The notes under the pieces: generated by a model
What the model was told of the DNA's origin: nothing
Databases searched by the model: none
What the model saw: only the letters and a program-made list of their open reading frames with translations
Translations under genes and position numbers: made by a program
Shown: positions 43,437 through 45,661 of the stretch, piece after piece
How the letters are laid out: each line of letters opens with the position of its first letter
Numbering within the stretch: position 1 is the stretch's first letter
Source of the DNA: Escherichia coli
GTDB taxonomy: Bacteria; Pseudomonadota; Gammaproteobacteria; Enterobacterales; Enterobacteriaceae
Direction: 5' to 3' (one strand)
Assembly: GCF_003334255.1 (NCBI RefSeq)
Contig: NZ_QOWU01000003.1
DNA length: 64,000 bases

Positions 43437-43462
43437 AAAAGGCCGCATAGCGGCCTTTTTCC
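43437..43462. terminator. Bidirectional intrinsic terminator between yhbY and greA
   Basis: AAAA-GGCCGC-ATA-GCGGCC-TTTTT. Confidence 0.75.
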
Positions 43463-43503: not shown

Positions 43504-43980
<477 letters not shown>

Positions 43981-44227
43981 TTGTTATACCTCTTGAATAT
44001 TCCTGATGGGGCAAGTCTTCACCCACCCCGGCTGTTCGGCCTGCCCGGCATAACTCCTCACCGGGACCAGAAGCAAAAAAATACCGACCCGGGTACAAGT
44101 CCCAGGTCAGCTACAATTCACATTTTGATAGTCATTTTACCCTGAAGTTCCCGAAGGGTCATCGTTTACTTTATAGGGCGTTGCGCCGTAGTATGACGGC
44201 TCGATTCCAGGTTGTTAGCGCGAGATT

Positions 44228-45661
44228 ATGCGATTTTCCAGATTTATCATCGGATTGACCAGCTGTATAGCGTTCAGTGTTCAGGCCGCAAATGTTGATG
44301 AGTACATTACTCAACTCCCCGCTGGTGCCAACCTTGCCCTGATGGTGCAAAAAGTCGGCGCGTCGGCCCCCGCTATTGATTACCACAGTCAGCAGATGGC
44401 GCTGCCTGCCAGTACCCAGAAAGTGATTACTGCGCTGGCGGCGTTGATTCAACTCGGCCCCGATTTTCGTTTTACCACGACGCTTGAAACCAAAGGCAAT
44501 GTGGAAAACGGCGTACTTAAGGGTGACTTAGTGGCGCGATTTGGTGCCGATCCGACGTTAAAACGTCAGGATATTCGCAATATGGTCGCGACTTTGAAAA
44601 AATCTGGCGTCAACCAAATCGATGGCAATGTGTTGATAGATACCTCCATTTTCGCCAGCCACGATAAAGCCCCCGGCTGGCCATGGAATGACATGACACA
44701 ATGCTTTAGCGCTCCGCCTGCCGCCGCCATAGTTGACCGCAACTGTTTCTCCGTCTCGCTCTACAGTGCCCCAAAGCCTGGTGATATGGCTTTTATACGC
44801 GTGGCATCTTATTACCCCGTTACGATGTTCAGCCAGGTACGCACCCTCCCCCGTGGTTCTGCCGAAGCGCAATACTGCGAACTGGATGTGGTGCCAGGCG
44901 ACCTGAACCGCTTTACGCTGACGGGATGCCTGCCACAACGTTCTGAGCCGCTCCCGTTGGCTTTTGCCGTGCAGGATGGAGCCAGCTATGCCGGTGCAAT
45001 TCTGAAAGATGAGTTAAAACAGGCGGGTATCACCTGGAGCGGAACACTGCTGCGCCAGACTCAGGTTAACGAACCTGGAACGGTAGTTGCCAGTAAACAG
45101 TCGGCCCCGCTGCACGATCTGCTTAAGATTATGCTGAAAAAGTCGGACAACATGATCGCCGATACGGTTTTCCGCATGATAGGCCATGCGCGCTTCAATG
45201 TGCCTGGAACATGGCGGGCCGGGTCGGACGCCGTGCGTCAGATCCTGCGCCAGCAAGCCGGTGTCGATATTGGAAACACCATTATTGCCGATGGTTCAGG
45301 GCTTTCGCGGCATAACCTGATTGCCCCCGCCACCATGATGCAGGTGCTGCAATACATTGCCCAACACGACAATGAACTTAACTTTATCTCCATGCTGCCG
45401 CTGGCGGGCTATGACGGCTCTTTGCAGTACCGTGCAGGTCTGCATCAGGCGGGCGTGGATGGAAAAGTCTCAGCGAAAACCGGTTCGTTGCAGGGGGTAT
45501 ATAACCTGGCGGGATTCATTACCACAGCGAGCGGGCAACGAATGGCGTTTGTGCAATATCTTTCTGGCTATGCAGTAGAACCTGCGGATCAGCGTAATCG
45601 CCGTATTCCGTTAGTGCGTTTTGAAAGCCGTTTGTATAAAGATATTTATCAGAACAATTAG
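44228..45661 (+). CDS. dacB: D-alanyl-D-alanine carboxypeptidase/endopeptidase PBP4
   Basis: 477 aa; signal peptide; class-C PBP motifs (STQK, SDN, KTG). Confidence 0.95.
   Translation: MRFSRFIIGLTSCIAFSVQAANVDEYITQLPAGANLALMVQKVGASAPAIDYHSQQMALPASTQKVITALAALIQLGPDFRFTTTLETKGNVENGVLKGDLVARFGADPTLKRQDIRNMVATLKKSGVNQIDGNVLIDTSIFASHDKAPGWPWNDMTQCFSAPPAAAIVDRNCFSVSLYSAPKPGDMAFIRVASYYPVTMFSQVRTLPRGSAEAQYCELDVVPGDLNRFTLTGCLPQRSEPLPLAFAVQDGASYAGAILKDELKQAGITWSGTLLRQTQVNEPGTVVASKQSAPLHDLLKIMLKKSDNMIADTVFRMIGHARFNVPGTWRAGSDAVRQILRQQAGVDIGNTIIADGSGLSRHNLIAPATMMQVLQYIAQHDNELNFISMLPLAGYDGSLQYRAGLHQAGVDGKVSAKTGSLQGVYNLAGFITTASGQRMAFVQYLSGYAVEPADQRNRRIPLVRFESRLYKDIYQNN

Follow-up and report, generated by a model that had tools for sequence, protein, structure and literature searches.

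The greA leader of Escherichia coli carries the intrinsic terminator of the small RNA GraL, followed by a conserved hairpin in the read-through untranslated region

On the greA strand of the greA-dacB intergenic region of Escherichia coli, a short palindrome is followed by a run of T residues, which raises the question of whether the greA leader contains an intrinsic terminator and, if so, which RNA this terminator would produce. We addressed this question in a stretch of 64,000 nt of E. coli chromosome (the window). Here greA (158 aa, 43504..43980, minus strand; the identical region is labeled greA in RefSeq) and the divergent dacB (44228..45661, plus strand) are separated by 247 bp, with yhbY, rlmE and obgE/cgtA as the other neighbors of the locus. 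A first-pass annotation of the window had described the range 43981 to 44227 as the greA leader region, and this range coincides exactly with the entire intergenic region. It had also placed the palindrome ACCCGGGT and the T-run CGGTATTTTTTT correctly, on the minus strand at 44094..44087 and 44086..44075, respectively. The 247-bp region was found in all complete E. coli genomes searched (5426 of 5426), many at 100% identity, and differed from K-12 MG1655 at 44059 and 44008 only, both downstream of the terminator described below.

Analysis of the transcribed strand by a terminator scan, by folding and in an alignment of 103 species, combined with the published 11-bp stem, located the GraL terminator hairpin at 44083..44111 (minus strand). 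The hairpin consists of the 5' arm GCUGACCUGGG (44111..44101), the loop ACUUGUA (44100..44094) and the 3' arm CCCGGGUCGGU (44093..44083). The terminator scan revealed 11 pairs, 7 of which are G-C, a 7-nt loop and 7 U residues among the 8 nt after the stem. Past the stem, the sequence continues with A at 44082, U7 at 44081..44075 and GCUU at 44074..44071; this U-rich termination zone, A-U7-G-C-UU (44071..44082, minus strand), was read directly from the sequence and corresponds to the published AU7GCU2. The elements by which intrinsic terminators are recognized were all found on the transcribed strand, namely a G+C-rich hairpin, a short loop and a U-rich tract directly after it. Folding of the 11-bp hairpin gave -19.6 kcal/mol (z = -4.80), a value that none of 200 dinucleotide shuffles equaled. 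The full stem-plus-tail pattern occurs once in the window, and no match was contained in any of 100 shuffles. The arms GCUGACCUGGG and CCCGGGUCGGU followed by AUUUUUUUGCUU fit the published "11 bp stem + AU7GCU2" base for base (PMC2836576, abstract). An 11-bp stem is unusually long for a terminator, accounting for 12% of 148 terminators surveyed (PMC2836576).

These results change how the palindrome is to be read. The first-pass annotation took ACCCGGGT to be the hairpin, but this 8-mer in fact comprises the last loop base and the first 7 bases of the 3' arm. Its description of the hairpin as short, and of the call as weak, does not hold for an 11-bp stem of -19.6 kcal/mol (z = -4.8), and its low confidence arose because the 5' arm was overlooked and only the 3' half of the stem was seen. 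It had named a negligible folding energy as grounds for dropping the proposal, and an energy of -19.6 kcal/mol is not negligible. Its proposal of an intrinsic terminator of GraL is borne out by the published stem and tail, the P1 and P2 start sites, the distance to the greA AUG and the match to Rfam family RF01769, all of which fit. Thus, the identification of GraL was correct and the structure was under-called.

Placement of the published landmarks on the window positioned the longest P1 form of GraL at 44071..44129 (minus strand), with the P2 forms beginning at 44118. P1 transcripts are initiated with ApU and carry four A residues at +4 to +7 (PMC2836576); this fits AUCAAAA in the window and sets P1 +1 at 44129. 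P2 starts 11 bp downstream of P1 and is initiated with ApA (PMC2836576), and the position 11 bp downstream of P1, 44118, reads AA and was taken as P2 +1. The greA AUG is reported at +150 counted from P1 (PMC6829880). The distance from P1 to the AUG in the window (44129 - 43980 + 1 = 150) is equal to this value, and the hairpin lies on the greA strand, downstream of the P1/P2 promoters and upstream of the greA AUG, as in published GraL.

A promoter scan identified the greA P1 sigma-70 promoter at 44134..44162 (minus strand), to which we assign the probable hexamers ATGACC (-35, 44162..44157) and TAAAAT (-10, 44139..44134), separated by a 17-nt spacer. The P2 sigma-E promoter was identified at 44124..44151 (minus strand) by its match to GGAACTT-N16-TCNAA, the consensus given in the legend to Figure 1 of PMC2836576, with GGAACTT at 44151..44145, N16, and TCAAA at 44128..44124. 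Both promoter motifs are present with starts 11 bp apart, and sigma-factor dependence is taken from the literature only; that of P1 on sigma-70 has been demonstrated (PMC2836576). The P1 promoter ATGACC-N17-TAAAAT was retained in 99 of 103 species, as was the P2 promoter GAACT[TC]-N16-TCNAA. From the P1 -35 through the U-tract (44071..44162, comprising the promoters, GraL and the terminator), the window is the MG1655 sequence with no differences, and the published experiments are therefore directly applicable to it. On the opposite strand, TTTACT-N18-TAGTAT at 44165..44194 (plus strand) points towards dacB, ends 34 nt before the dacB ATG and was kept in 102 of 103 species. It has 8 of 12 matches, which is below the threshold of the promoter scan, and no experimental mapping of it was found in the literature; it is possibly a dacB promoter.

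The behavior of this leader has been described in detail for K-12. About two thirds of the P1 and P2 transcripts terminate in the greA leader, and one third continue into greA mRNA (PMC2836576). The 3' ends of GraL are imprecise, with 1-nt differences over a range of approximately 10 nt (PMC2836576), and the resulting RNAs measure 49-59 nt if started at P1 and 37-47 nt if started at P2 (PMC2836576, PMC6829880), given at the level of the abstract as 40-50 and 50-60 nt (PMC2836576). The P1 lengths of 49-59 nt place the 3' ends at approximately 44081..44071 in the window. In vitro, the short RNAs were released into the supernatant from bead-immobilized templates without added factors, and the terminated RNAs were not reversed by Gre factors (PMC2836576, PMC6829880). 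Mutations at the base of the 11-bp stem altered both the efficiency and the pattern of termination (PMC2836576). Northern blots revealed terminator-dependent clusters of approximately 45 and 55 nt in vivo (PMC2836576, PMC6829880); the short leader RNA that the first-pass annotation proposed as a check is thus already published, for an MG1655 sequence identical to the one examined here. A literature search found no independent transcriptome or Term-seq support for GraL beyond the primary papers.

GreA itself affects termination at this site. It represses its own expression in vivo, an effect for which the protein must be catalytically active (PMC6829880). Autoregulation depends on GraL sequences in cis, namely the stretch from +1 to +18 and the arms of the hairpin, and not on the promoter, and remained intact in transcriptional fusions in which all sequence after +59 was deleted (PMC6829880). 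The effect of GreA was absent in vitro, and an additional factor has been postulated because it could not be reproduced there (PMC6829880). GraL is also reported to act in trans, with nudE as a likely target (cited via PMC6829880).

We also examined the conservation of the leader across Enterobacteriaceae. Loci were collected by searching one genome per species with a degenerate DNA pattern that encodes 10 residues of the GreA N-terminus and is independent of the leader. This search recovered 105 loci. Two of them (L011 and L019) are 'Proteobacteria bacterium' MAGs without an Enterobacteriaceae label, and the remaining loci have an Enterobacteriaceae label (family or genus) in their record or, in the case of L058, an Enterobacteriaceae-type leader. 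The alignment comprised 103 non-redundant 250-nt upstream regions, the window included. At the homologous position, all 103 regions formed a hairpin with 9-14 pairs and a U-rich tail after it, with a mean energy of -19.6 kcal/mol (range -26.6 to -11.1, n = 103). In the terminator helix, 97.8% of the alignment cells were paired across the 103 species. Compensatory (both-side) changes were found at 4 of the 11 pairs and one-side changes alone at the other 7; since the stem is highly conserved, the covariation comes mainly from its top pairs and from a small number of divergent genera. The G-U pair that forms the base of the stem, already remarked as conserved in PMC2836576, was kept in 91 of 103 species. 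In contrast to the long hairpin, which was present in 103 of 103 species, the 8-mer ACCCGGGT was kept in only 16 of 103, which indicates selection on the long stem and not on the palindrome.

The alignment yielded two further observations. The U-tract (44071..44082, minus strand; columns 184-196 of alignment A1) occurs in two forms, A-U7 in approximately 20 species, including Escherichia, Citrobacter and Salmonella among the rows inspected, and U4-C-U4/5 in most other genera. The published work on imprecise termination concerns the AU7 form. Locus L058 (CACSKA010000008.1) was deposited as 'Chryseobacterium sp. 18061' and has an Enterobacteriaceae-type greA leader, which nearly matches the leader of L076, a 'Citrobacter sp. 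18056' locus of the same study; the L058 assembly is likely mislabeled or contaminated.

The greA leader is also represented in Rfam, and this entry bears on a different reading of the locus, in which RNA helices upstream of the hairpin, or an antiterminator, compete with the terminator as in a classical attenuator or riboswitch-like leader. A cmscan search revealed a match to RF01769 ('Enterobacteria greA leader') at 44076..44197 (minus strand), which scored 127.5 bits (gathering score 60; E = 2e-24) and spanned the model in full (positions 1-124 of 124) without truncation. In the model, the terminator helix falls on the 11-bp stem, and the consensus structure shows six helices upstream of the terminator. 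An antiterminator structure has been stated to be detectable for greA leaders (Naville and Gautheret, PMC2965389); however, that terminator-centered screen, from which the Rfam family derives, defined its candidates without start-site data, as stretches of up to 200 nt that run from the upstream gene to the predicted terminator. Unlike GraL, the model reaches 68 nt upstream of the mapped start, with helices drawn in that part. Its positions 1 to approximately 69 correspond to 44197..44130 (minus strand), upstream of the P1 start at 44129, and 44076..44129 is the only transcribed part of the match when transcription begins at P1. The upstream helices are therefore absent from P1 and P2 transcripts, in which no more than 18 nt (P1) or 7 nt (P2) of RNA lead up to the stem; 18 nt leave no room for a classical antiterminator.

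The pattern of variation points in the same direction. The six upstream helices showed 0 compensatory changes in the 103 species, and the variation that was present breaks pairs, with one pair, for example, unpaired in 66 of 103. The block 44130..44197 is nearly invariant and includes the greA P1 -35 region as well as, on the opposite strand, the TTTACT-N18-TAGTAT motif that points towards dacB. Conserved promoter DNA explains this block better than RNA structure, and RF01769 appears to include untranscribed promoter DNA; since the upstream helices correspond to promoter DNA, the family is probably in need of trimming to its transcribed part. The intact regulation in the absence of all sequence after +59 also speaks against a classical attenuator, and the authors of PMC6829880 conclude that neither the definition of an attenuator nor that of a riboswitch applies to GraL. 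We consider control of this kind at the greA leader to be very improbable.

A second alternative is that termination depends on a short local structure around ACCCGGGT and is hence weak and marginal. The palindrome is present at 44094..44087, and a 6-bp hairpin (GACUUG/CGGGUC) can form beside the U-tract. However, this hairpin folds with only -5.7 kcal/mol (z = -0.75), 51 of 200 shuffles were as good, and the 8-mer palindrome itself offers no loop. The fold energies, the conservation pattern (16 of 103 species for ACCCGGGT versus 103 of 103 for the long hairpin) and the published effects of mutations at the base of the 11-bp stem (PMC2836576) together refute the short hairpin, to which we assign next to no probability. 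It is just as hard to credit that the dyad acts as DNA, as a palindromic protein site or a CCCGGG SmaI/XmaI site: ACCCGGGT is a perfect DNA palindrome with CCCGGG inside, but it is no commoner than expected by chance (it occurs twice in the window, and 8 of 100 shuffles reached that number) and poorly conserved (16 of 103), whereas the conserved trait is the complementarity of two arms 7 nt apart, including G-U pairs that make sense only in RNA (bottom pair in 91 of 103), with polarity conferred by a U-tract on one strand.

Taken together, these data identify the element, almost beyond doubt, as the intrinsic (Rho-independent) terminator of the greA leader from which the sRNA GraL arises, and no sequence feature was found that argues against this identity. 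The evidence obtained here comprises the anatomy of the element, its base-for-base identity with the published terminator, the strength of its fold, its membership in the Rfam family, and its conservation and covariation across Enterobacteriaceae. The efficiency of termination, the imprecise 3' ends, factor-independent release, autoregulation and action in trans come from the literature. From the sequence identity with MG1655 we infer that termination takes place likewise in this strain.

The terminator is the same element as that of K-12 (Potrykus et al. 2010, PMC2836576; Dylewski et al. 2019, PMC6829880), with no difference within GraL; the two changes that distinguish the strain from MG1655 (44059 and 44008) lie in the read-through untranslated region (UTR) and leave the terminator unaffected. 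It is already known in detail, and there is nothing new in the terminator itself. It resembles canonical intrinsic terminators such as lambda tR2 in its G+C-rich hairpin, the immediate U-rich tract and factor-independent release. In contrast to these, its 11-bp stem is unusually long, an A breaks the start of the U-tract, termination is spread over approximately 10 positions instead of 2-3, and its distance from the start site is 19 nt and its efficiency only approximately 67%. The authors of PMC6829880 compare GraL with the SreA riboswitch of Listeria, which is likewise a leader that terminates prematurely and works both on its own gene, in cis, and on other mRNAs, in trans. Unlike SreA, GraL has no known ligand-binding aptamer or alternative fold, and its effector (GreA plus the extra factor) enhances termination and does not relieve it (PMC6829880). 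At the other end of greA, where greA and yhbY converge, the sequence separating the two genes contains AAAAGGCCGC-AUA-GCGGCCUUUU, a perfect 10-bp hairpin (43437..43459, both strands). Since it is U-rich on either strand, it looks like a putative bidirectional terminator; in Rfam it gave sub-threshold matches only, to the terminator parts of STnc540 and STnc420.

We also analyzed the read-through 5' UTR of the greA mRNA, which extends downstream of the terminator from the U-tract to the greA ATG at 43980 (43981..44070, minus strand). The greA Shine-Dalgarno sequence GAGG (43989..43992, minus strand), 8 nt before the ATG, was invariant in the alignment, and GAGG-N7-9-ATG was retained in 98 of 103 species. 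Just upstream of the ribosome-binding site, the E. coli minimum free energy (MFE) fold and RNAalifold revealed a hairpin, H3 (44008..44029, minus strand), composed in the window of GGGGUGGGU (44029..44021), the loop GAAG and ACUUGCCCC (44016..44008). The sequence of the UTR (44070..43981) varies among genera, yet H3 is kept, ending approximately 8 nt before a near-invariant block, AGGAAUG...AAGAGGUAUAAC, that precedes the greA AUG.

H3 was recovered by RNAalifold from an unbiased fixed-window alignment that covers the 58 nt immediately preceding the ATG in the 103 species. In a controlled count all 7 pairs had both-side changes, amounting to 80 cells compared with 17.6 ± 3.5 in shuffles, with the E. 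coli clade one column out of register in the alignment, which works against the structure. The covariation score was 0.427; shuffles gave 0.250, and slid partners did not exceed 0.225. Extraction based on folding gave 38 distinct 7-bp stems. One of the two differences from K-12 lies inside H3 (44008, C here and U in K-12) and changes G-C to G-U, with pairing kept. H3 had no match in Rfam, and no description of it was found in the available text of the greA-leader papers PMC2836576 and PMC6829880. H3 is a well-supported conserved hairpin in the read-through UTR. The proximal UTR differed in this respect: single-sequence folds suggested two hairpins, H1 and H2, and RNAalifold returned no pairs from indel-rich MAFFT alignments of the whole read-through UTR or of its proximal half (H1, H2).

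What H3 might do is a separate matter. Deletion of the sequence after +59 leaves autoregulation intact, and H3 is therefore not part of the GreA feedback loop. Primer-extension ends termed 'P3/P4' have been attributed to post-transcriptional events (PMC2836576), and on our reading these ends might be related to the UTR hairpins. One idea, which we hold tentatively and consider unlikely, is that H3 and the AGGAAUG...AAGAGGUAUAAC block constitute an undescribed post-transcriptional control element that stabilizes the 5' end of processed greA mRNA or tunes greA translation as a binding platform. If this were true, the element would account for the P3/P4 ends and would represent a second regulatory layer, invisible to the published transcriptional lacZ fusions.

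Two other features of the UTR were considered. The motif GCUUCUG directly after the U-tract (44068..44074, minus strand) was present in 57 of 103 species, and the E. coli MFE fold shows it paired to the Shine-Dalgarno region AGAGGUA (43986..43992, minus strand). Occlusion of the Shine-Dalgarno sequence by this motif was not supported; it was predicted in 54 of 103 species, pairing of the Shine-Dalgarno sequence was 0.69 compared with 0.62 when the motif was shuffled, and the pairing offers no variation for a covariation test. An upstream open reading frame at 44018..44050 (minus strand), with AUG at 44050 after GAGGAG, 10 codons (MPGRPNSRGG) and a stop at 44020..44018, was rejected, with neither the AUG nor the frame conserved in other genera, and is probably due to chance.

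The following sequence of events at the greA leader would combine the features described here with the published experiments. RNA polymerase would initiate at the overlapping sigma-70 P1 (+1 at 44129) and sigma-E P2 (+1 at 44118) promoters and transcribe 18 nt (P1) or 7 nt (P2) of unstructured RNA, then the 11-bp G+C-rich hairpin (44111..44083) and then A-U7-G-C-UU. Approximately two thirds of the polymerases would let go of the transcript at the U-rich zone, at ends spread over approximately 10 positions (44081..44071), and release would yield GraL of 49-59 nt for transcripts begun at P1 and of 37-47 nt for those begun at P2. The other third of the polymerases would read through the 90-nt structured UTR, leading to greA translation. 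In vivo, catalytically active GreA would raise termination, a negative feedback exerted via the GraL sequences in cis and an extra factor, and freed GraL would act in trans, with nudE as the proposed target. The amount of GreA, the principal factor for transcript cleavage and fidelity, is set by GraL, and this control combines an unusual, imprecise terminator with a feedback loop that involves a postulated accessory factor.
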